From an uncultured Kiritimatiellota bacterium (GTDB lineage: Bacteria; Verrucomicrobiota; Kiritimatiellia; RFP12; UBA1067), in the NCBI GenBank assembly GCA_934675625.1, contig CAKURH010000003.1:4503-68502 (forward strand): DNA of 64,000 nt, written 5' to 3'. Position 1 is the first letter of the stretch. Each line of letters starts with the position of its first letter. The notes under the pieces are model-generated. The model was given only the letters and a program-made list of their open reading frames with translations, did no database searches and had not been told where the DNA came from. Below are positions 31,036-61,916 of the stretch, in pieces. Made by a program: the position numbers and the translations under genes.

Positions 31036-31066
31036 CCGCCCCTCCCAGCTTCCAGGCCTCATACCA

Positions 31067-41078: not shown

Positions 41079-41104
41079 GTTGATGTCGTGTCGTATGGTC
41101 GTGT

Positions 41105-41113
41105 AGTATAGCC
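41105..41113 (-). promoter_or_regulatory. Possible -10 element GGCTATACT upstream of the fucosidase gene
   Basis: The minus strand reads GGCTATACT 26 nt upstream of ATG 41078. The match is weaker than the other boxes. Confidence 0.35.
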
Positions 41114-41154
41114 TAAACCCAAGGCCCAAATCAAGTGCCGAACCGGGGCGCGCG

Positions 41155-45691: not shown

Positions 45692-45748
45692 TTTTGCAGC
45701 AGGTTCCTCTGGACGTTCATTCTTAGGCTTCCCTAAAAAAGAGCGCAT

Positions 45749-45828: not shown

Positions 45829-47859
45829 TTAAAACCAGATCGAGAAGAGGTCGCCGCCCTCGCTGCACGGCACGTCCGTCCCGCTCGCGAAGTCGCAGAC
45901 CTTCGCCCGAATCGTCCGCGCACCCGGCTTCGTCAGCTCCAGATTCCAACGGCCCCACACGAGGCCGTCCGACGGGCGCGGCGTCAGCGTCGCGCGGTAG
46001 CCCTTGCCGTTCACGGTGAACGCTTCGCCAATCTCCTCGCGCGTGGCGCCGGCGAGCCGCGACTTCGCCAGAACCAGCGGCCCCCACATCACCACGGCGG
46101 CCGGTGTCGTCCGATAGCCGTCCGTAAGATCGCGGTTCACGAGGGGGCTTCCGTGGTCGGGATAGCGGCGGAAGGCCCAGTTCTTCCGGTCTTGCCCGTT
46201 CAGCTCCGGCACCGTCGCCAGCCGGTCGACGACGCGCGCGTTCATGTCGAACGAAAGCGCGTAGACCTGCGCCGCGCGGACGTCCTCCGCGCCGATTGCC
46301 GCCACCTGCTCCACATTCATCTGCGGACACCACGCCGGCTTTCGGAACGCGACCTTCGCGGACGGATCCGACACCCGAACCGTCACGACGCCCTCGACCG
46401 GGTAGTTGCCCGCAATCGTGAACGTGACGTCCTCGAACGTGACCGTCGCGTCCTGATAGAGGTTCACGTGGAAGACGCCCGTCCGGTCACGCGTGACCGT
46501 CACTTCCGCAATGTCCATGAACGTGCGCGGCAGGTTGTTCACGCAGCACTGGTTGTAGGCGTAGCCGCACTGGCGCTGCTCCGTGTGACGACCGTGGCCG
46601 CGCAGGAAGAACGGGCCGAAGGCGCCGTCGCGCCAGATGCCGGCGAGGAAGCCGTTCAGGTAGGCCGCCTCGACCGAATCAAGGTGCTTCTCGTCGCCCG
46701 TCACAAGAAAGAGGTCGACGTTCAGGCGAATCCAGTGGATGACGTCGCAGACCTCGTTCAGGGCGTTGCAATACTGCGGCGCACCGATGAGCTTGTCGCC
46801 GTAGCCCACGGCGCCGAGCGGATTGGCGTCCGTCTGCGCGAGGTTGTCGCGCACGCGGCGCGCCGTCTCAAGGCAGCGCGTCTCGCCCGTCACACGATAG
46901 TATTCGAGAAGCCCGTCCACGCAGCTCAGGAACTCGTAGGTCTTCGCCCAGCGCTCGGGCTTCGGATACCACGTGTGGAGCGGCTGATCCTTGGACGCAT
47001 TGCGGAAGAAGTTCGGGATCCGCCCGTCGTCGCGATCCCAGTCGGACAGAATCTCGGCGGCGTAGTCGAGGTATTTCCGGTTCCCGGTCTCCTCGTAGAG
47101 CAGGACGAGCGGCTTCAGAATTGACATCGAGGGAAGACCGCCCAGCGCCCCGGTGTCGCACAGGCGCAGCCCCAGACGGCGGAGCATGTCGATGAGCTGG
47201 TTCGCCTGACGCTCGACCGAGGCGAGAATCGCCCGGTCGCCCGTCGCCTTGTAGGCCCTGAGCAGGCCCCACAGGCAGTATTTGCGATTCCAGACGTTCC
47301 AAACGGTCTGCCAGCCGTAGACCTTTCGCGTCGCTTCGGGGTCCCTGATCGAGACGAGTTCCTTGTCCTTGTAAGAGCCGAGGTAGCCGTCGGGATCCTC
47401 CAGCGCGATCAGCCGATGACATTCCGCCGCAACAAACGCCTTGACGGACGGATCGTCCAGGTAGTCCGCGACGCGCGCGGCGCCCAGCATGAGCTTGCCC
47501 CAAAACTCGCCGCGCCAGACGCCGCCGTGCCCCAGCACGTCGTCGTCGCGTTCCTCGAACGCGCGCCGGGCCTCGCCGAAGACGTTCTTCTGCGCAAACG
47601 CTGAGGTGACGCGCGCGTGGATGAGGGCGTCGAGCTTCTGACCCGGATAGCCCAAAAGTCTGACGTCCCGAAGCGGTGGCGTGCGCATCGCGTCCGGCAC
47701 CTCGCACAAGAGACGACCGTCGGCCGGCCCCGCAAGCCCGGCCTGAGCCAACCCGATCAGGGACAGGACGGCGAAGACCTTGCCCAACCCGACCACTCGA
47801 ACCCGACCACGGGGGTCAGACACTTTTTCAGACGTATGTTTTTTCGTATGTTTTTTCAT
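45829..47859 (-). CDS. GH127/GH146-like (DUF1680, beta-L-arabinofuranosidase-type) Cys-glycosidase
   Basis: Trimmed to MKKHTKKHTSEK (ATG 47859, ATGA overlap with the upstream stop). E-x-C (NEVCD) and C-C-x-x-N (NQCCVNN) match the GH127 Zn/Cys catalytic-site pattern. Confidence 0.8.
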   Translation of the reverse strand: MKKHTKKHTSEKVSDPRGRVRVVGLGKVFAVLSLIGLAQAGLAGPADGRLLCEVPDAMRTPPLRDVRLLGYPGQKLDALIHARVTSAFAQKNVFGEARRAFEERDDDVLGHGGVWRGEFWGKLMLGAARVADYLDDPSVKAFVAAECHRLIALEDPDGYLGSYKDKELVSIRDPEATRKVYGWQTVWNVWNRKYCLWGLLRAYKATGDRAILASVERQANQLIDMLRRLGLRLCDTGALGGLPSMSILKPLVLLYEETGNRKYLDYAAEILSDWDRDDGRIPNFFRNASKDQPLHTWYPKPERWAKTYEFLSCVDGLLEYYRVTGETRCLETARRVRDNLAQTDANPLGAVGYGDKLIGAPQYCNALNEVCDVIHWIRLNVDLFLVTGDEKHLDSVEAAYLNGFLAGIWRDGAFGPFFLRGHGRHTEQRQCGYAYNQCCVNNLPRTFMDIAEVTVTRDRTGVFHVNLYQDATVTFEDVTFTIAGNYPVEGVVTVRVSDPSAKVAFRKPAWCPQMNVEQVAAIGAEDVRAAQVYALSFDMNARVVDRLATVPELNGQDRKNWAFRRYPDHGSPLVNRDLTDGYRTTPAAVVMWGPLVLAKSRLAGATREEIGEAFTVNGKGYRATLTPRPSDGLVWGRWNLELTKPGARTIRAKVCDFASGTDVPCSEGGDLFSIWF

Positions 47860-48941
47860 CGTTTTAATGGTGGACGGGCGAGGAAGAGCGCGAGCGGCGC
47901 TTCGGCCCTGATTCGGAATGCCCCGCAGGCGGCGGGGACGAAAAACTGGTCTCCGGGGCCGATCGGCGCCACACCGGCGGCCGTCTCCAGCGCGCCGCGC
48001 CCCGACAGCACGAAGAGCCCGCAGAACGTCCCGTCCGCCGCCGGGAACGGCATCGCACCCGTGACGTCCAGCCGCTCCAGCGCGAAGCACGGCGTCGTGC
48101 GCGGCCCGACGAGCTCCGTCCGGCAAAATCCGTCGCCCGCTTCCATGACGCGCGGCGCCACCCGCTGTCGCGCGCGCGTCTCGGCCTCGTTCCGTCCGTC
48201 GTAGTGGAAGCACGTGAACATGCTGTCGAACCCGACGCCATAGTGGCACGCCGCATCGGAAATGCGGAATCCCTGCGGCGTCACCTTCTCCGTGCGGAAC
48301 GTGTAGTCGGTCGGCTCCTGAATCTCGACGAGAAGGCAACCCGCGCCGATGGCGTGCGGCGTGCCGCCCTCGATGAGGAACGTGTCGCCCGGCGCGACCT
48401 CGATGCGGTTGAGCATCGCAAGCATGGCCGGGATGTCCTGCCGGTCGAAGACGTTGCGCCACGCCGCCGGCGTCACGCCCGGCCTGAAGCCCAGGTAGAC
48501 GCACGGTCGCGCGCCGCCGATTTCCCGTCCGCCGACGATGTGCCAACATTCGGTCTTGCCGAACGGCGAGCCGAAGAGCCGTTGCGCCGCCGCGCGGTCG
48601 GGGTGGACCTGCACGCCGAGGCGCTCGGCCGCGTCGATGAGCTTGACGAGCACGGCGGGGGTCTGTCCCCACGTCGCGACGTGCGCCGCGCCGAGCAGTT
48701 CGACCGGATGCGCAGCCAGCGCGGCCTTCAGCGTGAGGTCTGTCCCCGCGACGCGGCAAAGTCCCTCGACGATCTCCTCGCGCCCCGGGTTGACGGCGCG
48801 GACGGCGGAGCAGATCCACTCCTCCGGGAAGTGCGTGTCGGCGGCTGGCGTGACGCCGTGCAGCTCGTCGAGGAACCTGCCGCCGAGATACGTCCGCCAC
48901 GCACGCGCGGACGTGAGCCGGATGGGCGCGTCAAACCTCAT
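47856..48941 (-). CDS. Class I phosphomannose-isomerase-like cupin
   Basis: Trimmed to MRFDAPIRLTSARAW (ATG 48941, ATGA overlap). Metal-ligand pattern QVHPD ... KTECWH ... GTPHAIGAG. Confidence 0.8.
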   Translation of the reverse strand: MRFDAPIRLTSARAWRTYLGGRFLDELHGVTPAADTHFPEEWICSAVRAVNPGREEIVEGLCRVAGTDLTLKAALAAHPVELLGAAHVATWGQTPAVLVKLIDAAERLGVQVHPDRAAAQRLFGSPFGKTECWHIVGGREIGGARPCVYLGFRPGVTPAAWRNVFDRQDIPAMLAMLNRIEVAPGDTFLIEGGTPHAIGAGCLLVEIQEPTDYTFRTEKVTPQGFRISDAACHYGVGFDSMFTCFHYDGRNEAETRARQRVAPRVMEAGDGFCRTELVGPRTTPCFALERLDVTGAMPFPAADGTFCGLFVLSGRGALETAAGVAPIGPGDQFFVPAACGAFRIRAEAPLALFLARPPLKR

Positions 48942-51169
48942 GCCGCCGTCGCCTCCGGGTTGACGCTCCGCACGCGGTCGACCACCAGCTTGCGGAACTT
49001 CGGCGAGAGCATCGCGAAGAACGCCGTGAACCCCGTCACGCGCACGACGAGGTCCGGATATTTCGCGGGATCCCTGTCCGCGTCGAGGATCTTCTGCGCG
49101 TCGACGATGTTGACGTTGAGGAGCGTGTTGCCGGTCGCGAGGATGGCGCGAACCATCGCGCACATCTTGTCGAGGCCCTCCGCGTCGTTCGCGACCATCG
49201 GGTCGACCTCCAGCTGCACCGGCGCCGTGTTGCCGTAGCCGGGCTGGATCGCCGCGATGGAATTGCACATCGCCGAGACCGCGCCGTCGTGCCGAAAGCC
49301 GCCGTTCGGGTTCGCGCCGTGGTTGATCGGCTCGCCCGCCTTGCGTCCGTTCGGCGTCGCCTTCAGCCGCGCGCCGAGCAGGATCGTGTTCGACCACGAG
49401 AAGAAGCCCGGAATGAAGTTGACGTGACGATAATCGTCCGCATGCTGCCGCACGAGGTCGCGCACAAGCGCCGTCCACAGCTTCGAGACGCGGACGGCCC
49501 AGGCGTCGCCGCGCGTCTCGCCCCCGCCGTAGCGTTCGGAGTGGCTGAGAAGCTGCCGGACGCGCTCGCCCTCGACGCCCGCGAAGTCCGCGTCGAGCCA
49601 CCGCTTCAGTTCCGCATACGAGAGGCGCTTCTCGCGGTCGCAGCGCTGTTCGAGCGCGGCGAAGCTGTCCGCGACGACCGCGAGCCCCGCGCCGTCCACG
49701 CAGATGTTGTAGTAGCTCGCGCCGCCGTCCGTGATGTTGACGCCCTTCTCGACGAGGCCGTGCTGCATCAGGTTGAGGATCAGCTCGGGCTGGCTTTCCG
49801 TCTGGTAGTTGAGATGGTGGATGATGCCCCGCCCGGTCGCGTCGACGGCGACCTTGAGGTGACGTCCGTAGATCTCCCAGAGCGCCTCCGCCGACTTCGC
49901 GCCGTCGGATGCCATCAACTCGTCCCACGCGACCTCGAACACTTTCGCGAGGTTGACCTTCACGGTGTCGTTCATCGTGTACTCGCGTCCGGGGATGCAC
50001 ATCCAGTGACATCCGGCGGCGACGCGGCGACGCGCGAGCTCCTTCGGGTAGCCGCAGCGCATGAAGCCCTCCATGAGCGCTTTGTCCGAGGAGTAGCGCG
50101 GCCAGCCCTGCCGGTTGCGGAAGAGACATTCGACCGACTTGCGGAAGAAGACGGGGTCGAGCCGGTCATGCACGCGGATCGTCAGGTTCGTCGCGAGATT
50201 GAGCCTGTCCGCCGCATCCAGCGCGAGGTAGCTGAGGTGGCACGTGCGGTCGTTGTCGTTCTCGTCCGGCCCGGCGAGCTGCCAGTAGCGGCTGTCCTGC
50301 AGGAAGAGGCACGCGAGGTAGAAGACGGCCTCGTCGTCCGTCAGGCGTCCGGCGGCGACGTCGCGTTCGTAGTAGGGATTGAACAGATCCTCCAGCTGTC
50401 CGCCCGCACTGCCCCGGTTGTAGGTGCGCGAGAGCATCGAGAACCAGCAGCTCCACTGAATCGCCTCGCGGAACGTCTGCGGCGGCTCGGTCGCGAGCCG
50501 CAGGTCAATCTCGCCCATCGTGCGCAGGTTCGCGGCGAGCTGCGCGTTGCGCTCCGTCCGCGCCAGCGCAAGGATCTCCTCGCCCGCGCGGCGGATGAAC
50601 GCGCTGACATGCTCGACGACGGTAATCTCCGCGTCGTAGAATGCGTGGTGCGTCGCGTCGTGCCGCGCGCGACAGTCCTTCAGCTCCTTCAGCACGCCGC
50701 CCCAGCCCTTCGCGAGCCCGATCTGCAGGTCGGGCGTGAAGTGGTGGCAGTTGTCGATGCCGGAGATGACCTGGTAGCGGTCGAAGACCGCCTGAAGGTC
50801 GGGGTAGGCGTAGGCGGGGTTCCACTTGCACATCGGCGGGCGCAGCCGCTCCAGGAAGAGGAAGCCCTTCGCCGCGAAAGCGTCGAGCGCGTCCACGTAG
50901 ATCGGGTGCTGGTCGAGGAGCGCGCAGTAGTTCTCGCACCACGCCTCGTAGCCGTAGATGGAGCCGTTCGGGTGGTTCGGCTTCAGCTTGTAGCGGAAGA
51001 CGTCCTGCTCGATGAGGCCGTAGTCGTCCTCGTCGGCGCCGCCGGCCTTCGCCTTCTCGGCGGTCTGCGCGACCTTGCGCGCCCGCAGGAGCGCAATGCG
51101 CTCGTCGTAGGTGAACGTGCGGTCGGCCGGAAACTCGTTGACGAACTGGATCTTGCTCATGGCCGTCAC
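48938..51169 (-). CDS. Glycyl radical enzyme (PFL2/dehydratase-like fold), divergent, 743 aa
   Basis: C-terminal glycyl-radical motif VVRVTGFTAFFAM (Gly713). The Cys loop AAGCHWMCIPG (Cys387) lies 326 residues upstream, which is the expected spacing. The N-terminus is PFL2-like. Confidence 0.88.
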   Translation of the reverse strand: MTAMSKIQFVNEFPADRTFTYDERIALLRARKVAQTAEKAKAGGADEDDYGLIEQDVFRYKLKPNHPNGSIYGYEAWCENYCALLDQHPIYVDALDAFAAKGFLFLERLRPPMCKWNPAYAYPDLQAVFDRYQVISGIDNCHHFTPDLQIGLAKGWGGVLKELKDCRARHDATHHAFYDAEITVVEHVSAFIRRAGEEILALARTERNAQLAANLRTMGEIDLRLATEPPQTFREAIQWSCWFSMLSRTYNRGSAGGQLEDLFNPYYERDVAAGRLTDDEAVFYLACLFLQDSRYWQLAGPDENDNDRTCHLSYLALDAADRLNLATNLTIRVHDRLDPVFFRKSVECLFRNRQGWPRYSSDKALMEGFMRCGYPKELARRRVAAGCHWMCIPGREYTMNDTVKVNLAKVFEVAWDELMASDGAKSAEALWEIYGRHLKVAVDATGRGIIHHLNYQTESQPELILNLMQHGLVEKGVNITDGGASYYNICVDGAGLAVVADSFAALEQRCDREKRLSYAELKRWLDADFAGVEGERVRQLLSHSERYGGGETRGDAWAVRVSKLWTALVRDLVRQHADDYRHVNFIPGFFSWSNTILLGARLKATPNGRKAGEPINHGANPNGGFRHDGAVSAMCNSIAAIQPGYGNTAPVQLEVDPMVANDAEGLDKMCAMVRAILATGNTLLNVNIVDAQKILDADRDPAKYPDLVVRVTGFTAFFAMLSPKFRKLVVDRVRSVNPEATAA

Positions 51170-51981
51170 CCCACCTTGACCGTCAGGCCCTTGACGTCCG
51201 CGAGTGCCGCGCGGATCTCGGCGAGCCTCGCCTCCGGGAACGGCTTCGCGTCCGCAAAGGCGTCCGCGACGCCCAGCGCCGCGCGCTTCGCGCCGCCGAG
51301 CGGATTGAAGTTCAGAACCTCATAGCGGACGATGTTTTCCATCTTCGAGATGTACTCGGCGATCGCGTGCAGGTTCTCGATGTCGTCCGTCACGCCCGGC
51401 ACGAGAGGCGTGCGCACGACCATCGGGATGCCGAGGCGGGACGTGCGCCCGATCGAGTTGAAGACCGTCGGGTTGTCGAGCCCCGTCTGCTCCTGATGCG
51501 GAATCGTCAGGTTCAGCTTCAGGTCGCACATGATGAAGTCCATCTTGCGGAGCATCGGCTCGATGACCTGCCAGGGCCGCGACATGTTCGTCTCGATCGC
51601 GACGGAGATTCCCTCGGCGTGGCAGGCGTCCGCGAGCGCGCACACGAATTCGGGGTGCAGCGATGGCTCCCCGCCCGAGACCGTCACGCCGCCGCCCGAC
51701 TCGGCGTAGTAGGCCCTGTCCTGCACGACCTCGCGCATCACCTCGGCGACGTCCATCTCGCGCGACGAGCGGACGCGCGCGCCGGCCGTGCAGCCCTCGG
51801 CACAGTGTCCGCAGCCGAGGCACTTTTCCCGGTAGAAGAGCTCGACCGGCTTCAGCGGAATCGTCTCCGGGTTGTGGCACCAGGGGCAGTGCATGTTGCA
51901 GCCCTGCAGGAAGACGGTCGTGCGGATGCCCGGCCCGTCCTGAAGCGAGAACCGCTGGATGTCCGTGACGTAGGCCTTCAT
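51166..51981 (-). CDS. Glycyl-radical-enzyme activating enzyme (radical SAM)
   Basis: Trimmed to MKAYVTDIQRFSLQDGPGIRTTVFLQGCNMHCPWCHN (CX3CX2C), with an auxiliary CLGCGHCAEGC motif. ATGA overlaps on both sides. Confidence 0.9.
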   Translation of the reverse strand: MKAYVTDIQRFSLQDGPGIRTTVFLQGCNMHCPWCHNPETIPLKPVELFYREKCLGCGHCAEGCTAGARVRSSREMDVAEVMREVVQDRAYYAESGGGVTVSGGEPSLHPEFVCALADACHAEGISVAIETNMSRPWQVIEPMLRKMDFIMCDLKLNLTIPHQEQTGLDNPTVFNSIGRTSRLGIPMVVRTPLVPGVTDDIENLHAIAEYISKMENIVRYEVLNFNPLGGAKRAALGVADAFADAKPFPEARLAEIRAALADVKGLTVKVG

Positions 51982-52760
51982 CGGCGCACCCCCTTCGCGT
52001 CGAAGGCGGCGTGCTGGCCCGTCGGGATGTGGGAGGCGTCCAGCCGCCGAAGCGCAAGCTCGTTGTCCGGGTAGAAGTCGATCCAGAGGTAGTGGCAGTG
52101 CTGGCCCGCGCGGATGTCGACGCCGTGGATCGACCCCAGCGGGATGTAGAGGAGCTCGTTGCCCTTCATCGGCGCCGCCTCGTAGTCGATCAGGACGTCC
52201 ATCTCGTTCTCCTCGAAGCTGAAGAAGAACTGGTCGAGCATCGGATGGTCGTGGCTCTTCACGGCGTCGATGCCGTAGGTCTCGACCGAGCCGAGCGCGA
52301 AGCGCGGAATGCGCCGCTGGTCGACGCAGCTGCGGGAGATCGTCTTCGCGCTCTTGTTGCGGTCGCGATACTGCTTCGAGTTGCGATAGACCTGAATGAG
52401 CGGAAACTGCGTCTTGTAGTCGGCCGCGAGCCGGTCGTCCTCCCCTGCGCGCCGAAACCAGCGGATCTCCAGGATCTGCACGTCGGAAAGCGCCTCGATG
52501 CGCACGGCCCGCTCCGGCGCGGGAACGAAGACGACGCGTTCGTGAAAGACGTATTCGTTGCCGTCCGTCGCGAAGCGCACGTCGCCCTTCAGGACGGTCA
52601 GCACATGGTGTCCGTCCATCGGGGCGAGTTCGAGCGCCGCGCCCGCGCGAATCGTGTGATGCCAGGGCGTCGCGCCCGGGATGCAACCGTCCAAGGCCTT
52701 CCGCGACTGGCTCTCCGTCGCCGAGAAGTCGAGGGCAACCTTCTGGATGTCGTATTTCAT
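51978..52760 (-). CDS. Bicupin protein (two cupin barrels), function unknown
   Basis: Trimmed to MKYDIQKVALDF (ATG 52760, ATGA overlap). The C-terminal barrel carries SHDHP...E...HGV metal-site-like residues. Confidence 0.7.
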   Translation of the reverse strand: MKYDIQKVALDFSATESQSRKALDGCIPGATPWHHTIRAGAALELAPMDGHHVLTVLKGDVRFATDGNEYVFHERVVFVPAPERAVRIEALSDVQILEIRWFRRAGEDDRLAADYKTQFPLIQVYRNSKQYRDRNKSAKTISRSCVDQRRIPRFALGSVETYGIDAVKSHDHPMLDQFFFSFEENEMDVLIDYEAAPMKGNELLYIPLGSIHGVDIRAGQHCHYLWIDFYPDNELALRRLDASHIPTGQHAAFDAKGVRR

Positions 52761-54487
52761 TTTCTCTTTTCGTTGTTCAGTTTCTTCAGGATGGGCCGCA
52801 GGGCGAGGCCCGACAGGGCCGCCACGGCCGTCAGCGCGCTCGCCGGGGCCGTCCGACCGTAAATCCACAGGCCGACGGCGAACATGAGCGCATAGACGCA
52901 GACGCACGCCACCGTCATCGCGAACAGGCCCCAGGCGATGTCATGCCGGTCGCCGCCGACCTTCGCGCGGAACGCCGCCCGCTTCGCCGCCTCGGTCGGC
53001 GGCGTCAGGAGCGTGACGGCGACCCACGCCGCCGTCGTGACCGCCATGACGACGAGGAGCCGCTGCCACGCGGCGAGCGCCGGCCCGCCGAGGTGCGGAT
53101 AGACGAGCTGCACGAAGACGGCCACGGCGAACGAGACGGCCATCGCCGTAATCTCGCTCCACGCGTTGATGCGCATCCAGAACCAGCGCAGGAGGTAGAT
53201 GAGGCCCGTGCCCGCGCCGATCTGGAGAATGAGGTTGAAGACCGCGCCCGCCGAAACGAGGTAGGGCGCGAGGACGCTGGAGAGGATCATGAGGACGACC
53301 GCCGAGACGCGCCCGACGTGGATGAGCTCGCGCTCGGACGCCGCCGGGCGGACGAACCGCTTCCAGAAGTCGTTCGCGAGGTAGTTCGAGCCCATCGACA
53401 GGTGCGCCGCGACCGTCGAGAACAGCGCGCCCATCATCGCCGCCGCGACGACGCCCAGCCAGCCGTTCGGCACGAACGTCAGCATGGCCGGATAGGCGAG
53501 GTCGCCCTTCACGAGCGACGGGTCGACGTGCGGGAACGCCCGCTGGAGCGAGGCGAGGTCGGGGAAGACGATGAGCGAGGCGAACGCCGTCAGGTACCAC
53601 GGCCAGGGGCGGATCGCGTAGTTCACGACCTGGTAGAGCATCGAGCCCGCGATGCAGTGGCCCTCGCTCTTCGCCGAGAGCATGCGCTGGACGATGTATC
53701 CGCCGCCGCCCGGCTCGCTGCCCGGATACCAGACGTTCCACCACTGGATCGCGACCGGGATCACGAACACGGCGACGAACGTGTCCGTGTCGTCGAGGGA
53801 CGGGAAGAACGAGAGGTGCGCCTGCACGGACGGGTTCGCCATCATCTGCGCGAAGCCGCCGACCTCCGGCAGGGCCAGCGCATAGTGCAGCCCGACGAAC
53901 GCGCCGACCAGGATGACAAGGAAGAGAACGAAGTCCGTGTAGATCGCGCCGCGAAACCCGCCGAGCGCCGAATAGGCGATCGAGGCGACCGACGTGACGA
54001 CCAGCACCGTCGTCTGGCTGACGCCGAAGAGCGTCTGCCCGATCTTGATCGCCGCGAGCATGCAGAGCGCCGTCGTGATCACGTTGAAGACGAGGCCGAG
54101 GTAGACGGCCCGGAACGCGCGCAGGAACGCCGCCGGCCTGCCGGAGTAGCGCAGCTCGTAGAATTCGACGTCGCTCTGCGCGCCCGACCGCACCCAGAGC
54201 TTCGCGTAGACGAAGACCGTCAGCATGCCCGTGAGGAGGAACGCCCACCACTTCCAGTTCTCGCCGAGCGACGAGTTGCGGATGAACTCGGTGAACATGT
54301 TCGCCGAGTTCGAGGAGGTCGACGCCGCGCACATCGAGACGCCGATGAGCCACCAGGGCATCGACCGCCCCGAGAGGAAGAAGTCCTTCGCGTCGCGGCC
54401 CGCCTTGCGCGAACACGCGAAGGCGATACCGAAGAGGACGGCGAAGAAGCCGAGGATGACGAGACCGTCGACGAGATTCAGGCGCAT
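52757..54487 (-). CDS. Sodium:solute symporter family (SSS/SGLT-like) transporter
   Basis: About 13 hydrophobic segments, with an N-terminus DFFLSGRSMPWW typical of the SSS family. Confidence 0.88.
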   Translation of the reverse strand: MRLNLVDGLVILGFFAVLFGIAFACSRKAGRDAKDFFLSGRSMPWWLIGVSMCAASTSSNSANMFTEFIRNSSLGENWKWWAFLLTGMLTVFVYAKLWVRSGAQSDVEFYELRYSGRPAAFLRAFRAVYLGLVFNVITTALCMLAAIKIGQTLFGVSQTTVLVVTSVASIAYSALGGFRGAIYTDFVLFLVILVGAFVGLHYALALPEVGGFAQMMANPSVQAHLSFFPSLDDTDTFVAVFVIPVAIQWWNVWYPGSEPGGGGYIVQRMLSAKSEGHCIAGSMLYQVVNYAIRPWPWYLTAFASLIVFPDLASLQRAFPHVDPSLVKGDLAYPAMLTFVPNGWLGVVAAAMMGALFSTVAAHLSMGSNYLANDFWKRFVRPAASERELIHVGRVSAVVLMILSSVLAPYLVSAGAVFNLILQIGAGTGLIYLLRWFWMRINAWSEITAMAVSFAVAVFVQLVYPHLGGPALAAWQRLLVVMAVTTAAWVAVTLLTPPTEAAKRAAFRAKVGGDRHDIAWGLFAMTVACVCVYALMFAVGLWIYGRTAPASALTAVAALSGLALRPILKKLNNEKRK

Positions 54488-54491
54488 GCGG

Positions 54492-56354
54492 TCACTTCCC
54501 GTAGAAGACGTAGCCGAGCGGCTTCACCTCGCGGCCGCGATAGGTGAACGGCGTGTCGTCGGAGTAGTTGACGACGATCTCCTCGCCGTTCTCCCAGCGC
54601 GTGCGGAAGACGTTCTCGGCGAGCCGGTCGTGGCGGTCGATGAACTCGTAGACGAGGTGCTTCATCGGCTGCCAGGCGTCGTACATCTCCTTCATCGGCG
54701 CGAGCGTCGCGTACTGCTGGAAGTAGAACGTCGGGCGTCCGCCGTATTCCCAGACCTTCAGCGTGCGGTGCGCCGCGTCCCACAGGTAGTCGCTCATGCC
54801 CGACATCTTGTGGATGTCCGTGCGCTTCGCGGGCGGAACGACCTTCTTCAGCGGGTCGCCGCCGCGTCCGTAGGAGGCGTCGACCGTCGCCCAGTAGGGC
54901 TGGCTCAGGATGATGCCGTTGTAGGCGATCTGCCAGAGCGGCACCTCGCCGTCGACGAGTTCCGTCGCCGGCTGCTGCTTCGAGGCGAACGTGCCCACGT
55001 AGAGCGCGTTGTCGAGCCCCGGCGCAAGGTGATCCATGCCGGCCTCGGACGAGTAGCCGCCGAAGACGGCGCGCGCCTTCTCGCACGTCTTGAGCTGCCA
55101 CTCCGCCATCTCCTTGCGGTTCGCGGGGTGGTTCGGCGCGTGGCACGGCGTCGGGTAGCGCGCGCTCGTCACGTCCACGTGGTGGATGCCGTCGAGGCCC
55201 ATCTCCTTCAGGTGCGCCAGATCCTCGTCGAGCCAGCGGTTGTTGACGACCTGGAAGCACGTGTGGTAGGCGAGACCGCCCTGCAGATAGCCGTAGACGC
55301 GCAAGTGGCCCTTCGGGTTGACGCACACGTCGTCCTCGTTCCAGCGGGGCCGTCCGCACGCGCGGTAGATGTTGTGGTTGTTCACGTGCACGCTCATGCG
55401 GTAGCCGAGCGACTTGCCGTAGGCGATCGCGTCCCTCATGCCCGCCTCGCCGCCCAGTTCCTCCGGCACCGGCCAGAGCTTCGGGAACGGGCCGTCGAAG
55501 CCGAGGTAGTTCCAGCCGACGATGCACATGTCGACGTCGTCCATCCCCAGGTCCTTCACCTGCTTCATGAGCTTCTTGTAGTCCGCGAACGTGCGCTTCC
55601 AGAGGATCGGCGGCATCGCGTGCGTCGGGTTGTCGCGGCTGTGCCCGTCGCAGTGCGCGAGCTTGCAGCGCATAAAGACGGACTTCGCCGACCATTCGAG
55701 CGCGGGGTTCCCCTTCACGCGTTCGCGGAGCGGCTTCACCCAGCCGCGCGCGAGATTCCAGTTCCGGTAGACCTTGGCCATGCCGGAGTAGTTCGCGTCG
55801 TCGCCCGTCAGCTCGTAGTAGTCGACCACGATGTCCTCGTAGGGGTCGAACTCGATCTGGTCGATCTCGAAGCGCGGATAGTAGTGGTAGACGCCCTTCT
55901 CGACGGACAGGTTCAGGATGAACTCCAGCCGCAGGCCCTTGACGATGCCGACCCAGCAACGGTCAGCCGTCTTGAGCCCGAAGATCGGCATCTGGAGGTG
56001 GCCGCGCGTCGACTGGAACTGGCCGTGCTCGCGGTCAAGCCGCCCGTAGCGGTTGTCGCCCGCGACCCAGTAGCCGTCCGCGCAGTTCGGCGCGAGCGCG
56101 CCATCCGGCACGACGTCGATCCACCGCGTCCGGCGCGGGATGTCCTTTGTCGCGAGCCGGTAGCGGTAGGCGCCGTCCGGCATGCGCTCGGCCTTCTGCG
56201 AAAGGCGATACTTCTCGCCATTCTGCTTCCAGATGCGGAAGAAGCCCTTCTCCAGTCCGGCGTCGGCCCGCGCCGCCGCCGTCGCGCATGCGAGCGCCGC
56301 GCCCAGCGCCAGCGCCTGCGGCAGAAGCCGGACGCGCCGCCCCGCCGTTTCCAT
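54492..56354 (-). CDS. Secreted paralog A (type 1) of an unassigned putative glycanase family
   Basis: Trimmed to METAGRRVRLLPQALALGAALACATAAARA. Shares FDPYEDIVVDYY, MCIVGWNYLGFDGPFPKLWPV, MSVHVNNHNIYR, HHVDVTSARYPTPCH and FGGYSSEAG with paralog C. Confidence 0.75.
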   Translation of the reverse strand: METAGRRVRLLPQALALGAALACATAAARADAGLEKGFFRIWKQNGEKYRLSQKAERMPDGAYRYRLATKDIPRRTRWIDVVPDGALAPNCADGYWVAGDNRYGRLDREHGQFQSTRGHLQMPIFGLKTADRCWVGIVKGLRLEFILNLSVEKGVYHYYPRFEIDQIEFDPYEDIVVDYYELTGDDANYSGMAKVYRNWNLARGWVKPLRERVKGNPALEWSAKSVFMRCKLAHCDGHSRDNPTHAMPPILWKRTFADYKKLMKQVKDLGMDDVDMCIVGWNYLGFDGPFPKLWPVPEELGGEAGMRDAIAYGKSLGYRMSVHVNNHNIYRACGRPRWNEDDVCVNPKGHLRVYGYLQGGLAYHTCFQVVNNRWLDEDLAHLKEMGLDGIHHVDVTSARYPTPCHAPNHPANRKEMAEWQLKTCEKARAVFGGYSSEAGMDHLAPGLDNALYVGTFASKQQPATELVDGEVPLWQIAYNGIILSQPYWATVDASYGRGGDPLKKVVPPAKRTDIHKMSGMSDYLWDAAHRTLKVWEYGGRPTFYFQQYATLAPMKEMYDAWQPMKHLVYEFIDRHDRLAENVFRTRWENGEEIVVNYSDDTPFTYRGREVKPLGYVFYGK

Positions 56355-56358
56355 CTTC

Positions 56359-58197
56359 TCAGTTCTCGAACAGTTCATGGCTGACCTCCTTGATGATGCG
56401 TCCGCGATAGGCGAACGGCTTTTCCGAATAGTTGACGACAAGTTCCTCGCCGTTCTCGTAACGCGTCGCGTAGACCTGCGGCGCGAGCTCGGCATGCTCG
56501 CGGATGAATTCCAGCTGAAGATGCCGCAGGGGCTTCCACGCCCGGTAGACGCGCGCGACGTCCGCGATCTGGCGGCGGTAGTCGGTGTAGTAGAACATCG
56601 GCCGCCCGCCGAACTCGAACAGCGTGAGGAGCGACTTCTCCGGCGTCTCGAGGAACTCGAAGACCTTGCGGCTCGCCCCCACGGCGTCCGACGTGCCGTT
56701 CGGCTCGCGCGGCACGCCCGCGTCAAGCGTCGCGTAGAACGGCGTGGACATGATGATGCCGTTGTAGACGATGGACCACGTGGGCAGGTAGCCGTCCACG
56801 AGCGACGTCTTCGGCACGCTCCAGCCGGGATACGGCGCCTGGTAGAGCACGTTGTCGAGCTCCGCCGCGAAGTGGTCGCAGCCGCACTCGGACGAATAGC
56901 CGCCGAACGCCGCGCGCGCCTTCCGCGCAATCCGGCGCAGCCAGCCGCGTTCCCCTTCGGACGAGTTCGGGTGGCGCGGGTCGTGGCACCGCTCCGGCAG
57001 GCGCGCGCTCATCACGTCAACATGGACGAGCCCGTCGAGGCCGAGATCCTTCATGTCCGCAAGATCCCTGTCAAAATACCTGTTGCAGATGACCTCGTAG
57101 CAGCTGTGGTAGACGGGTCCGCCGGGGAGCGTCGTGTAGCGGCGCACCTTCCCGTCCGGCCCTTTCGCGACGTCGGCTTCGCACCACCGCTTCGCGTTGC
57201 GGTAGAAGTTGTGCTGGTTCAGGTGAATCGACATGCGGTAGCCGAGCGACTTGCCGAACGCGATCGTCTCGCGCATCCCCGCGTCGCCGCCGAAGCGTTC
57301 GTCCGCCGGGAAGAGGTCGGGGAACGGGCCGTCGTGTCCACCCGGCTGAAAGCCGACGAGGCACATCTCCGCCTTGTCGATGCCCGCGTCACGGCAGTCC
57401 TGCATGACCTTCCGGAAGTCGGCGAACGTGTAGTCGACGACGACGGGCGGCATGTTCGTCTCCCAGTCCGCCCGCGTCGACGTGCGGCGGTCGCAGCGAC
57501 CGAACTTGCAGCGGAGGAAGATTGATTCGGACGCGTACGCGAGCGCGGGATTTCCTTTTATGCGTTCCCGCAGCGGACGGCATCCGCCCTCGGTGAGCTG
57601 GTGGGCGCGGTAGCGGCGCGCCATGCCCGAATAGTTTGCGTCCGCGCCCGTGAGCGGATAGAAGTCGACCACGATGTCCGCGTAGGGGTCGAACTCGATG
57701 CGCGGCAGGTCGTAGCGCGCGAAGACGGAGTAGACGCCGTTTGTGACGTGTACGTACTGCCGGTGTTCGAGCGGCATGCCCTTGACAATCGCAACGAAGC
57801 AGACTTCCGGCGTCTTGATGCCGAAGATCGGCATCCGCCACGTCCGCGTGAACGTCTCCTGCGGCTTCTTCTTGCCCGGTTCCGGCACGGCTGCGTCGCG
57901 GTTGAACGCGCCCCAGCGGCAGTCGCCGAGCGTCCAGTAGCCGTCGCATTTCGGCACGACCGCCGCGTCGGAAACGACGTCAAGCCATTTCATGTCGCGC
58001 GTCATGTCGATTGTGCGGAACTGCGCGCGATAGGCGCCGTCCGGCTGACGCGCGGCGGTGGCCCTGCGCGTCTCGACGCGCCCGTCGGCGTAGGTGATGC
58101 GGTACGTGACCCGCGCGAGCGGACTCTCCGCCCGCGCCGCCATCGCGCACGCACAGAAAACACCCGCGAGAAACAGTCCTTTGATCGTCTTCTTCAT
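56359..58197 (-). CDS. Secreted paralog B (type 2) of the same family
   Basis: Signal peptide MKKTIKGLFLAGVFCACAMAARA. Motifs MCLVGFQPGGHDGPFPDLFPADERFGG, HLNQHNFYR, CHDPRHPNS and FGGYSSECG. Closest to paralog D. Confidence 0.8.
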   Translation of the reverse strand: MKKTIKGLFLAGVFCACAMAARAESPLARVTYRITYADGRVETRRATAARQPDGAYRAQFRTIDMTRDMKWLDVVSDAAVVPKCDGYWTLGDCRWGAFNRDAAVPEPGKKKPQETFTRTWRMPIFGIKTPEVCFVAIVKGMPLEHRQYVHVTNGVYSVFARYDLPRIEFDPYADIVVDFYPLTGADANYSGMARRYRAHQLTEGGCRPLRERIKGNPALAYASESIFLRCKFGRCDRRTSTRADWETNMPPVVVDYTFADFRKVMQDCRDAGIDKAEMCLVGFQPGGHDGPFPDLFPADERFGGDAGMRETIAFGKSLGYRMSIHLNQHNFYRNAKRWCEADVAKGPDGKVRRYTTLPGGPVYHSCYEVICNRYFDRDLADMKDLGLDGLVHVDVMSARLPERCHDPRHPNSSEGERGWLRRIARKARAAFGGYSSECGCDHFAAELDNVLYQAPYPGWSVPKTSLVDGYLPTWSIVYNGIIMSTPFYATLDAGVPREPNGTSDAVGASRKVFEFLETPEKSLLTLFEFGGRPMFYYTDYRRQIADVARVYRAWKPLRHLQLEFIREHAELAPQVYATRYENGEELVVNYSEKPFAYRGRIIKEVSHELFEN

Positions 58198-60080
58198 TCT
58201 CTCCGTGCCTCCGTGACGCCGTGTGACTTTTCGGCCTGACTGTCTGCATAGAATTCGTAGCCGAGCGGCTTCACCGTGCGCCCCCGGTAGGCAACAGGCC
58301 TGTCCGAGTAGTTCACCGCGATTTCATCGCCGTTCGCCCACGTCGTCACAAAGGCGTCCGCCGCGATTTCGCGATGGTCGTCGATGAGCTCAAGCTGCAA
58401 GTGCTTCAGCGGCTGCCAGAGGTCATACATCCGCTTCATCGGCTCCAGCGTCTCGTATCGGTTGAAGTAGAACGTGGGACGTCCGCCCCATTCCAGCACC
58501 TTGAGAATCCGCGCCGAGGCGTCGGCGCCGCCCAGCCAGTCGCCCGGCCCCATTTTCGCAAGCGGGAGGCTGCCGTTCCCGTGCGGATAGGTCGGGTCGC
58601 ACGTCGAGAACGTCGGCTGGCTCATGATGATGCCGCCATAGGCGATCGGGAAGAGCGGCAGGATGCCGTCCGACATCCAGCGGCCCTCCTTCGGTTCCTC
58701 GTCCCGATACTGGTTGACGGGATACGGGCAGACAAAGAGCACGTTGTCGAGCGCGGGCGCGAAATGGTCGAAGCTCGACTCCGAGCTGTAGCCGCCAAAG
58801 GCCGCCCGCGCCTTGAGCGCCGTCTTCATCTGCCAGTCGGCCATCTGCTGCCGGTTCGCCGGATGGCGCGGGTCATGGCACGGCGTCGGGTAGCGCGCGC
58901 TCGTCACGTCCACGTGGTGCACGCCGTTGAGGCCCATGTCGCGCAACTGGCGGAAGTCGGCGTCGAGCCAGCGGTTGTTGACGACCTGAAAGCACGTGTG
59001 GTAGGCCAGCCCGCCCATGATGACCTGGTATTCGCGGCAGGTGCCGTCGACGTTCTTGCAGACGTCCTGCCGCTTCCAGAACTGGCCGCTCCCGCGATAG
59101 ATGTTGTGGTTGTTCACGTGCACGCTCATGCGGTAGCCAAGCGACTTGCCGAGCGCAATCGCCTCGCGCATCTTCGCCTCGCCGCCAAGCGGCTCGTAAA
59201 CCGGCCAGAGCTTCGGGAACGGCCCGTCGAAGCCGAGGTAGTTCCAGCCGACGATGCACATGTCCAGGTCGTCCATGCCCATCGCCTTGGCCTGCCGCAG
59301 GAGATCCATGTACGAATCGAACGTGCGGTTCACGACAATCGGCGGCATCGAGTAGTTCGGCATCTGCCGCGCATGTCCCTGGCAGTTCGCCAGTTTCGTG
59401 CGCACGTACATCGACTTCGCCGACCACGCGAGCGCCGGGTTGCCGACGATGCGCGCCTTCAGCGGCTTGACCCAGCCGCGCGCGAGGTTCCAGTCGCGAT
59501 ACTTCCGGGCCATGCCGGCGTAGCTCGCGTCCCTCCCCTCCAGCGGATAGACGTCAACGACGATGTCCTCGTAGGGATCGAACTCGATGCGGTCGATGTT
59601 GAAGCGCGGGAATATCCAGTACTTGCCCCGTTCGCCCTTTTCGGCGACGACCTTGAGCGAATATTCGAGGCGAAGGCCCTTCACGATGGCCACAAACGCA
59701 TAGGCGTCGCGCTTGACGCCGAAGATCGGCAGATGGCTCTCGCGGATCTCCAGTTCGCCCGCGTCCCGGTCGAAGCGCCCCCAGCGGTAGTCGCCGCTGA
59801 CCCAATAGCCCGGCCCCTTCGAGATGTACGCCGCCACGTCGGGGATGACGTCGAGCGTGCGCGCCTCGCGCGGGATGTCGGCCGTCGGCACGCGGTAGCG
59901 GTAGGCGCCGTCAGGCTCGCGCGTCGCCTGGATCCGGCGTTGCTGACACGGCTTTCCGTCGCCCGGCGTGATGCGCAGGACGCCCTGCTCGAATCGCGGA
60001 TTCGCCCAGAGGGCGGCCGCCGCGCCCGACAGCGCAACCGTCAGGATCCATGTGCGGCTCATTGTCTTTTTGTTTTTCAT
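58194..60080 (-). CDS. Secreted paralog C (type 1) of the same family
   Basis: Signal peptide MKNKKTMSRTWILTVALSGAAAALWA. Near-identical blocks to paralog A. A 16-aa C-terminal extension is read through the duplicated leader. Confidence 0.8.
   Translation of the reverse strand: MKNKKTMSRTWILTVALSGAAAALWANPRFEQGVLRITPGDGKPCQQRRIQATREPDGAYRYRVPTADIPREARTLDVIPDVAAYISKGPGYWVSGDYRWGRFDRDAGELEIRESHLPIFGVKRDAYAFVAIVKGLRLEYSLKVVAEKGERGKYWIFPRFNIDRIEFDPYEDIVVDVYPLEGRDASYAGMARKYRDWNLARGWVKPLKARIVGNPALAWSAKSMYVRTKLANCQGHARQMPNYSMPPIVVNRTFDSYMDLLRQAKAMGMDDLDMCIVGWNYLGFDGPFPKLWPVYEPLGGEAKMREAIALGKSLGYRMSVHVNNHNIYRGSGQFWKRQDVCKNVDGTCREYQVIMGGLAYHTCFQVVNNRWLDADFRQLRDMGLNGVHHVDVTSARYPTPCHDPRHPANRQQMADWQMKTALKARAAFGGYSSESSFDHFAPALDNVLFVCPYPVNQYRDEEPKEGRWMSDGILPLFPIAYGGIIMSQPTFSTCDPTYPHGNGSLPLAKMGPGDWLGGADASARILKVLEWGGRPTFYFNRYETLEPMKRMYDLWQPLKHLQLELIDDHREIAADAFVTTWANGDEIAVNYSDRPVAYRGRTVKPLGYEFYADSQAEKSHGVTEARRE
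58195..58227. repeat. 33-nt repeat (start codon plus 30-nt leader of type-2 genes), copy 1
   Basis: CATTCTCTCCGTGCCTCCGTGACGCCGTGTGAC is identical at 61914..61946. Confidence 0.9.
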
Positions 60081-60110
60081 GGTCTTCTGCCTGTCTTCGG
60101 ATTTTCCGTT

Positions 60111-61916
60111 TCAGTTCGCGGACGCATACAGCTCATACGCGAGCGGCTTCACCGCGCGCCCCCGGTAGGCGAAGTCCGAGGCCGTGTAGTTGACGACGAC
60201 CTCCTCGCCGTTCTCGTAGCGCGTCGCGAACACGTCCGGCGCGAGTTCGACATGCTCGCGGATGAACGCGAACTGCAGGTGCTTCAGCGGCTGCCAGAGG
60301 TCGTACATCCGCTTCATCGGCGCGAGGTCCCGGTAGTCCGCATAGTAGAACATCGGACGCCCGTTGAGCTCGAAGACCTTGAGCGTGCGCCGCGCCGGCG
60401 TCCCGAGATAGCCCGTGACCTCCGTGTGGGGGCCGACCGCGTCCGTCCGTCCGCTGCCTTCGCGCGGATAGGGCGCGTCAATCGTCGCGTAGAACGGATT
60501 CGACAGGATGATGCCGGAATACGCGACGTGCCAGACGGGGAAACAGCCTTCGACCAGTTCGGTCTTCGGACTGTGCCACCCCGGATAGCTGCTGACATAG
60601 AGCACGTTGTCCAGAATCGGCGCCACGTGGTCGATGCCGCATTCCGAGCTGAAGCCGCCGAAGCGGGCACGCGCCTTCTCGCCGATGCGCTTCTGCCACT
60701 CGGCCATGCGCGCACGGCTGTTCGGATGGCGCGGGTCGTGGCAGGGGATCGGCGCGGTGGCGCTCGTCACGTCGACGTGGAAGAGCCCGTTGATGCCGAA
60801 CGACGCCATGTCGTCCATGTCCTTGTCGCAATACCTGTTGCAGATGACCTCGAAGCAGCTGCGGTAGACCTGTCCGCCGGGATAGACGGTATACTTGATC
60901 GGCTGGCCGTACCGGTCCTTCGCGACGTCCGCCAGGTTCCAGCGCTTCGCGCTCCGGTAGAAGTTGTTCTGGTTGATGTGCATGTCCATGTGATAGCCGA
61001 GCGACCGTCCGTAGCGGATGGCCTCGACCATCTTCGCCTGCCCGCCGAAGCGTTCGTCCGCCGGGAAGAGGTCGGGGAACGGGCCATCGTGCCCGCCCGG
61101 CTGGAAGCCGACGAGGCACATCTCGGCCTGGTCGATGCCCATCTCCTTCGCGCGGCGCATGATGTCCTTGAAGTCGTCGAACGTGTGGTCGACCACGACG
61201 GGCGGCATCGCCTTCAGCCAGTCCGCCGGCCCCGACTTCGTGCGGTCGCAGCGGCCGAACTTGCAGCGGACGAAGATCGACTCGGCCGCATACGCGAGAT
61301 TGGGATTCCCCTTGACCCGTTCACGCAGCGGCTTCACCTCGCCACGGCCGAGCTGATAGGCGCGGTAGAGCCGCCCCATCGCCGAGTAGTTCGCGTCCGC
61401 GCCCGCAAGCGGATAGTAGTCGATGACGAAATCCTCGTAGGGATTGAACCCGACGGCCGTCAGGCGCAGCTGCACAAAGTGCTCGTAGACGCCCTCCCGC
61501 ACGTCGATGCCCTCGGTCGTCTCGTAGCGCATGCCCTTGACGATGCCGCACCAGGCCGTCTGCGGGCCCGTCTTGCCGCCAAAGAGCGTCGTGCGCAGAT
61601 CCATCCGAATCGGCTGGCCGTCCCGGCGCGTGTAGGCGCCCCAGCGCCCGTCATTCAGCATCCACCAGCCCGGTTCGCCCGCCCGGCAACGGCCCGCGAG
61701 GTTCAGGACGCGGATCGAGCGGATGTCGGGCGTCATCCGAATCGTCGGGAAGGCGAAGCGCCAGGCGCCATCCGGCTGTCGCGCCAGACGAACAACATTC
61801 GTCTCAACGGTGCCGTTCAGGCGCTCGACCGCCACTTCCGCCTGATCGAGCGGCCCCGCCGCCTCGGCGGCAAGCGCCGCGCAAAAAGCGACCGCAAAAA
61901 ACATCCCTTTCATCAT
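60111..61916 (-). CDS. Secreted paralog D (type 2) of the same family
   Basis: Signal peptide MMKGMFFAVAFCAALAAEAAG. Motifs as in paralog B. Confidence 0.8.
   Translation of the reverse strand: MMKGMFFAVAFCAALAAEAAGPLDQAEVAVERLNGTVETNVVRLARQPDGAWRFAFPTIRMTPDIRSIRVLNLAGRCRAGEPGWWMLNDGRWGAYTRRDGQPIRMDLRTTLFGGKTGPQTAWCGIVKGMRYETTEGIDVREGVYEHFVQLRLTAVGFNPYEDFVIDYYPLAGADANYSAMGRLYRAYQLGRGEVKPLRERVKGNPNLAYAAESIFVRCKFGRCDRTKSGPADWLKAMPPVVVDHTFDDFKDIMRRAKEMGIDQAEMCLVGFQPGGHDGPFPDLFPADERFGGQAKMVEAIRYGRSLGYHMDMHINQNNFYRSAKRWNLADVAKDRYGQPIKYTVYPGGQVYRSCFEVICNRYCDKDMDDMASFGINGLFHVDVTSATAPIPCHDPRHPNSRARMAEWQKRIGEKARARFGGFSSECGIDHVAPILDNVLYVSSYPGWHSPKTELVEGCFPVWHVAYSGIILSNPFYATIDAPYPREGSGRTDAVGPHTEVTGYLGTPARRTLKVFELNGRPMFYYADYRDLAPMKRMYDLWQPLKHLQFAFIREHVELAPDVFATRYENGEEVVVNYTASDFAYRGRAVKPLAYELYASAN

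Follow-up and report, generated by a model that had tools for sequence, protein, structure and literature searches.

What does a glycyl radical enzyme (GRE) do when tryptophan stands where its relatives carry the glutamate of their catalytic Cys loop? The question is raised by one gene in a 64,000-nucleotide stretch (hereafter the window) of contig CAKURH010000003.1, from an uncultured Kiritimatiellota bacterium. GREs are the main route by which strict anaerobes achieve chemically difficult, redox-neutral bond cleavages. In the eliminases and isomerases among them, a CXE motif places Glu two residues past the catalytic Cys, where it is hydrogen-bonded to the substrate and acts as general base. 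The original prediction held that the window GRE has a G-C-H-W-M-C loop, lacks both the eliminase Glu and the adjacent Cys-Cys of pyruvate formate-lyase (PFL), and represents a mechanistically distinct subclass. Our comparisons indicate that this unusual loop marks a large, monophyletic and uncharacterised clade of GREs, here termed CxW, of which the window protein is very probably an active member.

Translation confirmed the reading frame, the GCHWMC loop (residues 386–391, comprising Cys387, His388, Trp389 and Cys391) and the RVTGFTAFF segment (residues 710–718), together with the 326-residue spacing between Cys387 and Gly713. The open reading frame (ORF) encodes 743 aa from a GTG start, which shares nucleotides with the stop codon of the activase gene upstream. 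An ATG at 51160, three codons downstream, would yield 740 aa; close homologues are nearly all 739–740 aa long, and the GRE probably begins at this ATG. Pfam searches detected PFL-like (6e-81) and Gly_radical (8.4e-13) domains, with the first ~140 residues lying outside the PFL-like match. The published fingerprint of the GRE superfamily (PFL-like, IPR004184), RVxG[FWY]x6-8[FL]x4Qx2[IV]x2R, was recovered at residues 710–732 (RVTGFTAFFAMLSPKFRKLVVDR) with one departure, Arg for Gln. The radical residue Gly713 is present and 100% conserved, without the Ala, Ser or Thr substitution typical of aminoacyl radical enzymes.

Structural comparison gave a consistent picture. Searches of the PDB by phmmer with the protein against all chains, and by hmmsearch with a 15-sequence clade profile, identified PflD (8yjo) as the closest match (5.5e-49 and 4e-102, respectively). 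An AlphaFold2 (AF2) model built on the clade alignment (pLDDT 91.3, pTM 0.91) places Cys387 (model residue 384) and Gly713 (model residue 710) between short strands, as expected of the two finger loops. Foldseek searches with this model matched more than 40 GRE chains, with template modelling (TM) scores of 0.75–0.82 and 18–24% identity to PFL2-type GREs. The best matches were PflD, glycerol and propanediol dehydratases (GD and PD), CutC, HpzG and HplG. The predicted structure thus conforms to the ten-stranded β/α-barrel GRE fold.

The Cys loop of the window GRE (AAGCHWMCIPGREY) was paired, in both phmmer and profile alignments, with those of four solved GREs: E. coli PflD (VVGCVELSIPGRTY), CutC (LMGCVEPQKSGRIY), C. 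butyricum GD (IIGCVEPQKPGKTE, with Cys433 and Glu435) and A. fulgidus PFL2 (TDGCVEIAPFGNSF). All four read C-V-E, and the window GRE reads C-H-W. His388 falls in the column usually occupied by Val or Ile, and Trp389 in that of the CXE Glu. Because of this alignment, Cys387 is assigned as the thiyl-radical cysteine and Trp389 as the occupant of the Glu position. The first assignment agrees with the original prediction, and the solved structures point to no other Cys; the predicted absence of both the eliminase Glu and the PFL Cys pair was likewise borne out. All the elements that a GRE requires to install its glycyl radical and to form a thiyl radical are thus present, and they are strongly conserved.

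Relatives were drawn from 1.84 billion 50%-identity representatives and aligned with MAFFT. Of the 126 closest representatives spanning the loop, 59 have Cys-x-Trp. For tree building, the full-length representatives were pooled with full-length genes found by scanning GTDB species genomes, giving 158 sequences. In the neighbour-joining tree, the 79 sequences with Trp at Cys+2 formed one exclusive clade with no non-Trp member inside it, supporting the proposed separate subclass. Trp occupied this position in all 79 clade members and in none of the 79 other GREs of the same alignment, where Glu (67) and Gln (6) were recorded instead. This pattern is far beyond chance. The catalytic Cys was conserved in 100% of the 158 sequences. 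The window enzyme had also been described as shorter than most PFL2-type enzymes; in agreement, clade members have a median length of 736 aa, and the sampled PFL2-type sequences outside the clade one of 787 aa.

The other loop residues are less constant. At position +1 the clade has Asn (41), His (28), Phe (5) or Gln (3), and its signature reads G-C-[HN]-W-x-x-[ILV]-P-G-x-E-[YF], with G-C-[FQ]-W-[YF] in an outer subclade. Since His388 alternates with Asn, and with Phe or Gln in the outer subclade, it cannot be a general base on which the clade depends. At position +4, Ala (26) is followed in frequency by Cys (21) and Ser (19), and then by Gly, Val or Asn. Cys was found there in only 13 of the 59 representative clusters and 21 of the 79 aligned members, so the second cysteine highlighted in the original prediction does not hold as a general trait. 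It is strictly conserved, as part of the exact string GCHWMC, in the orthologous subgroup of the window GRE, with 67–99% GRE identity. Cys391 is accordingly a trait of this subgroup only, rather than a general catalytic residue of the clade. What stands of the proposed loop traits is the absence of Glu and of Cys-Cys; His388 and Cys391 do not define the clade, and the invariant residue is Trp389.

Contrasting the clade with the 79 outside sequences revealed further characteristic positions: Asp401 (100% in the clade, 19% outside), Glu462 (100%, 8%), Glu396 (97%, 16%), Thr712 of the RVTG motif (97%, 10%) and Pro650 (96%, 5%). His143 is conserved in both groups (96%, 92%). In the profile alignment to GD, the segment 'qHlapD' pairs with 'gH164vsvD', placing His143 at His164 and Asp147 at Asp168; Asp401 falls at Asp447, and the conserved F590-S591-W592 strand falls on the Tyr640-Pro641-Ser642 strand. 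A June 2026 review of GREs gives the proposed role of GD His164 as general acid towards the leaving hydroxyl. By this comparison, clade members have lost the Cys-loop base, kept some further dehydratase-type active-site parts and gained an invariant acidic residue elsewhere. Their pocket appears to be rich in aromatic residues.

Is a GCHW loop already typical of a characterised GRE family? None was found in the PDB, in NCBIfam or in the 2026 review. Among solved GREs whose alignment spans the loop, none has C-x-W; all have C-x-E, or C-C in the case of PFL. The best NCBIfam GRE model was the broad PFL2-3 subfamily TIGR01774 (244 bits against a cutoff of 678), and no equivalog passed (HypD, CutC, HpsG, HpfG, IAD, HPAD and PFL). 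Eliminase-type equivalogs scored 157–194 bits against cutoffs of 1000–1109, the decarboxylase models indole_decarb and HPDL 98 and 91 bits against 1100–1150, and the PFL model TIGR01255 67 bits against 994. The review reports that CXE is kept in all six C–O eliminases, in CutC (where Glu491 is essential), in the three C–S lyases and in the three isomerases (HplG, YbiW and PflD). It also states that two cysteines occur on the Cys loop only in PFL and TdcE, lists Gln484 among the essential residues of phenylacetate decarboxylase (PAD), and notes that whole GRE clades still have no assigned function. Full-text literature searches covering recent GRE papers, the clade and its host taxa returned no description of a C-x-W GRE. 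With no characterised member found, the CxW clade appears to be an uncharacterised branch of the PFL2-like GREs. A distinct mechanism, the further step of the original prediction, is a reasonable inference from the loss of the CXE Glu.

The scan of GTDB species genomes placed clade members in Kiritimatiellia, Verrucomicrobiota, Planctomycetota, Lentisphaeria, Bacillota, Bacteroidales, Chloroflexota, Latescibacterota, Spirochaetota, Armatimonadota, Ignavibacteria and one Bathyarchaeia metagenome-assembled genome (MAG). More than 120 close 90%-identity metagenome clusters were found for the query GRE itself. The cultured Bacillota hosts Neglectibacter timonensis (SN17) and Faecalicatena fissicatena (KCTC 15010) carry more distant members in different neighbourhoods; these share just 40–50% identity with the query, and the cassette described below is missing. 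On the Bathyarchaeia MAG contig (L026, 7962–10226), a CxW GRE with the loop GCHWFA is accompanied by an activase; provided that the contig was binned correctly, this would make it a PFL-like GRE of archaeal origin. One representative (P0130, 1052 aa) has a ~300-aa N-terminal extension fused to the CxW GRE.

The genes around the GRE bear on its substrate. In the window, it belongs to a (−)-strand operon of overlapping or nearly abutting genes, which runs from four DUF5696 genes through a sodium:solute symporter (SSF), a bicupin, the activase and the GRE to a cupin resembling class I phosphomannose isomerase (PMI) (Table 1). The activase has a CX3CX2C radical SAM motif followed by a single ferredoxin-like CX2CX2CX3C motif. 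Its 312-aa Bacillota orthologue (locus L001) has two such CX2CX2CX3C motifs, and on this comparison the Kiritimatiellia-type activase may bind one auxiliary cluster fewer. In the bicupin, H169, H171 and H211 are invariant among homologues; the family is small, with 277 matches that are all named 'hypothetical', and no significant Pfam or PDB sequence match was found. Its AF2 model (pLDDT 93.4) has a generic bicupin fold with no specific functional match. We considered the bicupin as a clue to the substrate, and no function could be assigned, as the model matches only generic bicupins at 7–14% identity (DR1152, EF2996, ureidoglycine aminohydrolase, BacB and an IolB-like protein). The PMI-like protein aligns with B. 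subtilis PMI (1QWR, 2e-17) and keeps the HPD, ECW and HA metal-site motifs. The SSF protein is likely the substrate importer of the Kiritimatiellia-type operon.

Table 1 Positions of the GRE, its key residues and the neighbouring operon genes in the window
Feature	Position	Strand	Basis
GRE of the CxW clade	48938..51169	(-)	Pfam, PDB phmmer, AF2 model, Foldseek
Cys loop, G386-C-H-W-M-C-I-P-G-R-E-Y397	49979..50014	(-)	Translation and alignment to solved GREs
Cys387	50009-50011	(-)	Translation
Trp389	50003-50005	(-)	Translation
Cys391	49997-49999	(-)	Translation
Glycyl radical motif, R-V-T-G713-F	49028..49042 (Gly713 49031-49033)	(-)	Translation
His143, equivalent of GD His164 (proposed general acid)	50741..50743	(-)	Profile alignment
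Asp401 (Cys+14), equivalent of GD Asp447	49967..49969	(-)	Profile alignment, conservation
Glu462, clade-specific acidic residue, candidate relocated acid/base	49784..49786	(-)	Conservation
Activating radical SAM enzyme, 271 aa	51166..51981	(-)	TIGR02494 246 bits vs cutoff 174; Pfam Radical_SAM, Fer4_12
Bicupin, 260 aa, HxH...H metal motif	51978..52760	(-)	AF2, homologue alignment, gene linkage
Class I PMI-like cupin, start codon uncertain	47856..48911	(-)	Pfam MPI_cupin_dom; TIGR00218 below cutoff
Sodium:solute symporter (SSF)	52757..54487	(-)	Pfam SSF 5e-31
Four tandem DUF5696 putative glycosidases (GH101-like, DUF6259-like)	54492..61916	(-)	Pfam

A cassette of activase, GRE, 260-aa bicupin and, usually, the class I PMI-like gene recurs in Kiritimatiellia/Verrucomicrobia and Bacillota at 67–99% GRE identity. 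The GCHWMC subgroup carries it in every case, in two phyla and within carbohydrate-utilisation loci. The gene order of the window is shared with relatives of 88% identity (loci L083–L085) and with Verrucomicrobia UBA3624 (L062); SSF keeps its place in L083, L084 and L062, and DUF5696 genes precede the cassette in L083 and L084. The nearest named relatives of the GRE locus are a Kiritimatiellia rumen MAG and the same UBA3624, so that a polysaccharide degrader of the PVC group is the likely source of the window. The DUF5696 paralogues, whose similarity to GH101 and DUF6259 is weak, look like an uncharacterised glycosidase family that lies beside the cassette in Kiritimatiellia-type loci; a full-text search for DUF5696 returned zero papers. 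Elsewhere, the window contains one more DUF6259-like gene (28999–31062, (−) strand). In Bacillota MAGs with 67–80% GRE identity, the core order activase, GRE, bicupin is kept and the PMI-like gene comes next in most loci; one locus (L087) has no PMI-like gene after the bicupin. The Bacillota version has a tripartite ATP-independent periplasmic (TRAP) transporter in place of SSF, and is flanked by genes for a LacI-type regulator, GFO/IDH/MocA proteins, xylose-isomerase-like TIM barrels, UxuA, a short-chain dehydrogenase and a PfkB kinase.

Wider neighbourhoods were probed by tblastn with the window proteins across 82 loci. The bicupin and PMI-like genes occurred only with the GCHWMC subgroup (9–10 of the 82). 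Every bicupin homologue whose context was examined adjoins an activase and a GRE, including two at 48–55% identity. Neighbourhood clustering of 62 loci showed that the activase alone is universal across the wider clade. Recurring neighbours there are nonetheless tied to carbohydrates and include CUT1 ABC permeases and binding proteins, ROK kinases, AraC/LacI regulators, GFO/IDH/MocA proteins, TIM-barrel isomerases, the glycoside hydrolases GH38 and GH31, and URO-D-like proteins. In the gut bacterium Faecalicatena fissicatena KCTC 15010 (L040, 2712–11454), for example, a CxW GRE with the loop GCHWMS has two URO-D-like genes, a GH31 gene and a phosphotransacetylase gene as neighbours; loci from Latescibacterota and Rikenellaceae likewise have URO-D-like genes beside their clade members. 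This linkage suggests a different substrate for the URO-D-linked subgroup.

Taken as a whole, the evidence is best explained, somewhat more probably than not, by a functional CxW GRE that acts on a sugar-derived substrate, takes its acid/base chemistry from off the Cys loop and performs redox-neutral C–O cleavage. A carbohydrate-derived substrate is probable because SSF, TRAP and CUT1 transporters, GFO/IDH/MocA proteins, TIM-barrel isomerases, ROK kinases, LacI/AraC regulators, GH31, GH38 and DUF5696 proteins are encoded nearby. In the proposed scheme, SSF would import a sugar-derived small molecule, which the upstream putative DUF5696 glycosidases may release from a glycan. By homology, the adjacent activase would install the radical on Gly713, and Cys387 would carry the thiyl radical. 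Aromatic stacking platforms are common in carbohydrate-binding sites, and Trp389, possibly with F590 and W592, may form such a platform for the substrate. His143, Asp401 and the clade-specific Glu462 would carry out the proton transfers in place of the Cys-loop Glu, a specific assignment that we offer only tentatively. The net reaction would be a redox-neutral C–O cleavage, either dehydration or ring-opening isomerisation, and the two metal-dependent cupin isomerases (bicupin and PMI-like) would process the product or prepare the substrate.

Three considerations weigh against this scheme. Outside the subgroup of at least 67% identity, neighbourhoods differ widely, and the clade probably includes enzymes for several substrates. 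The TRAP transporter of the Bacillota version fits an acidic substrate, for which decarboxylation is conceivable. Finally, some characterised GREs lack a Glu at Cys+2; an example appears to be PAD, whose essential Gln484 would be Cys+2 with Cys482 as its catalytic cysteine. Loss of this Glu therefore does not by itself define a new chemistry.

A less probable, though serious, alternative is an ordinary GRE dehydratase or isomerase of the PflD/YbiW or GD type, which performs ketyl-radical elimination with its base moved to, for example, Asp401 or Glu462. It overlaps strongly with the scheme preferred above, and the novelty would then lie only in residue placement. The closest relatives in sequence and structure, PflD, GD, PD and CutC, are all consistent with it, as are the retained equivalents of GD His164 and Asp447 and a carbohydrate context in which the closest solved relative acts on anhydro-sugar phosphates. 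Yet every characterised eliminase or isomerase keeps CXE, the CutC Glu is essential, and the NCBIfam equivalogs all scored far below cutoff. In addition, the bulky Trp is 100% conserved down to ~25% identity, which suggests a positive role rather than mere loss of Glu.

A bolder possibility, less likely than not in our view, goes further: CxW would be a new functional class performing a radical carbohydrate transformation not known for GREs, acting with the bicupin and PMI-like proteins in an unrecognised anaerobic sugar route. Hydrogen might be abstracted from a carbon that bears no free hydroxyl, for instance one in a ring or an ether, and the cleavage that follows would bypass the ketyl intermediate. 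If so, the Cys-loop Glu would be dispensable and replaced by a sugar-stacking Trp. Horizontal transfer would then have carried the route through anaerobes of gut, rumen and sediment in at least 10 phyla, including that of the Bathyarchaeia MAG.

A two-Cys mechanism is improbable. Here, Cys387 and Cys391 would act either as a radical Cys and a PFL-like acyl-carrying Cys or as a reducing pair like that of ribonucleotide reductase, making the enzyme a lyase or reductase. The strict conservation of Cys391 in the cassette-linked orthologues, and its recurrence in a Clostridia subgroup as GCNWMC, are compatible with this mechanism. However, 46 of the 59 representative clusters have Ala, Ser, Gly, Val or Asn at position +4, so a two-Cys mechanism is not a family property; the likeness to PFL is weak, as the TIGR01255 score indicates, and the cassette contains no coenzyme A-handling, formate or thioredoxin genes. 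Slightly more improbable still is a decarboxylase-type GRE with a carboxylated substrate, perhaps a sugar acid: the essential Gln484 of PAD (Cys+2 if its catalytic Cys is Cys482), the aromatic-rich strands predicted for the active site and the TRAP, UxuA and short-chain dehydrogenase genes of the Bacillota version speak for it, but decarboxylases are among the weakest sequence matches, the Kiritimatiellia version has an SSF transporter and glycosidase-like genes, and the operon contains no ORF resembling the small Fe–S subunit characteristic of HPAD/XSS, itself a weak context test.

More specific substrates were also considered and set aside. A sulfoquinovose (SQ) or sulfosugar C–S lyase came to mind in view of the PMI-like isomerase, the TRAP transporter and the GH31 gene beside the Faecalicatena clade member. 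It was unsupported: neither an equivalent of the Arg/Gln/Arg sulfonate triad nor a sulfite-handling gene was seen, and a 2026 SQ review makes no mention of it. Quinate or cyclitol, uronate and anhydro-sugar substrates each fit some neighbours (GFO/IDH/MocA, AP_endonuc_2, UxuA, GH127-like), and none was discriminated.

Several other features of the window lie outside the operon. Directly after the PMI-like gene is a GH127-like (DUF1680) gene (45829–47850, (−) strand). Two genes downstream of the GRE operon, a 712-aa protein (43610–45748, (−) strand) fuses a BcrAD/BadFG-type activator ATPase to an HGD-D domain, a domain of the 2-hydroxyacyl-CoA dehydratase or double-cubane-cluster type. Both genes were considered as parts of the system and rejected, as tblastn did not find them conserved beside the cassette elsewhere; nor did it find the BcrAD/HGD-D fusion beside other CxW GRE loci. 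Beyond MutS lies a GH29 α-L-fucosidase gene (39645–41129, (−) strand), likewise not conserved beside the cassette in other loci. The window has 65–70% GC and is rich in carbohydrate-active enzymes. An unusual multi-domain example of 1309 aa (25107–29036, (−) strand) combines two esterase/α/β-hydrolase regions (BD-FAE, Abhydrolase_3, Peptidase_S9) with an α-L-rhamnosidase-like six-hairpin domain. The GC content is 0.62–0.71 outside 20001–24000 and drops to 0.52–0.58 within it. This low-GC region holds a 1093-aa protein with eight bacterial TSP3 repeats (21740–25021) and a 340-aa ORF without a Pfam match, and may be foreign DNA or a surface-protein island.

Newly assigned GRE clades have each exposed a new gut or environmental pathway, among them choline conversion to trimethylamine, hydroxyproline and sulfonate metabolism, and anhydroglycolysis. 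For the CxW clade, which is abundant and whose function probably plays a part in turning over carbohydrates in gut, rumen and sediments, there is now a sequence signature that contrasts with the CXE rule used for predicting eliminases. There are also candidate catalytic residues (H143, W389, D401 and E462) and a portable four-gene cassette that lends itself to heterologous expression.

Set against known systems, the window GRE is only weakly similar to PFL/TdcE (E 1.6e-17). They belong to one superfamily and share a second Cys on the Cys loop, but Cys418 and Cys419 of PFL are adjacent, whereas the second Cys of the window GRE sits at +4 and is not clade-conserved. PAD/PhdB resembles it as a characterised GRE reported without a Cys+2 Glu; if Gln484 indeed sits at that position, the CXE Glu is not universal. 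It differs in distant sequence, arylacetate substrates, Gln instead of Trp and another genomic context. The GRE 1,2-eliminases (GD, PD, CutC, HypD, IslA and HpsG) share the fold (TM 0.74–0.82), the catalytic Cys, the equivalents of His164 and Asp447 and a dedicated PFL2-type activase. Unlike them, the window GRE has no CXE Glu, belongs to a separate exclusive clade and scores 5–7 times below the eliminase equivalog cutoffs. The closest system is PflD/YbiW (8yjo, 8id0, 8id7), GRE isomerases for 1,5-anhydromannitol-6-phosphate and 1,5-anhydroglucitol-6-phosphate. PflD is the best match in both sequence and structure. It has in common with the window GRE the PFL2-type fold, the Gly loop, the position of the Cys, the IPGR that follows it, the His ('gqgHiiiDY') and Asp ('glHD') equivalents and a tie to carbohydrate metabolism, which for the window GRE comes from gene context. 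The two are nevertheless only ~24% identical. The window GRE is ~40 aa shorter with a divergent N-terminus, its cassette contains no PTS (phosphotransferase system) or aldolase genes, and it has C-H-W in place of the PflD/YbiW C-V-E, whose Glu deprotonates the C2-OH. The CxW GRE is, in sum, a variant within a known enzyme type rather than a new kind of system, and what sets it apart is the invariant Trp389.

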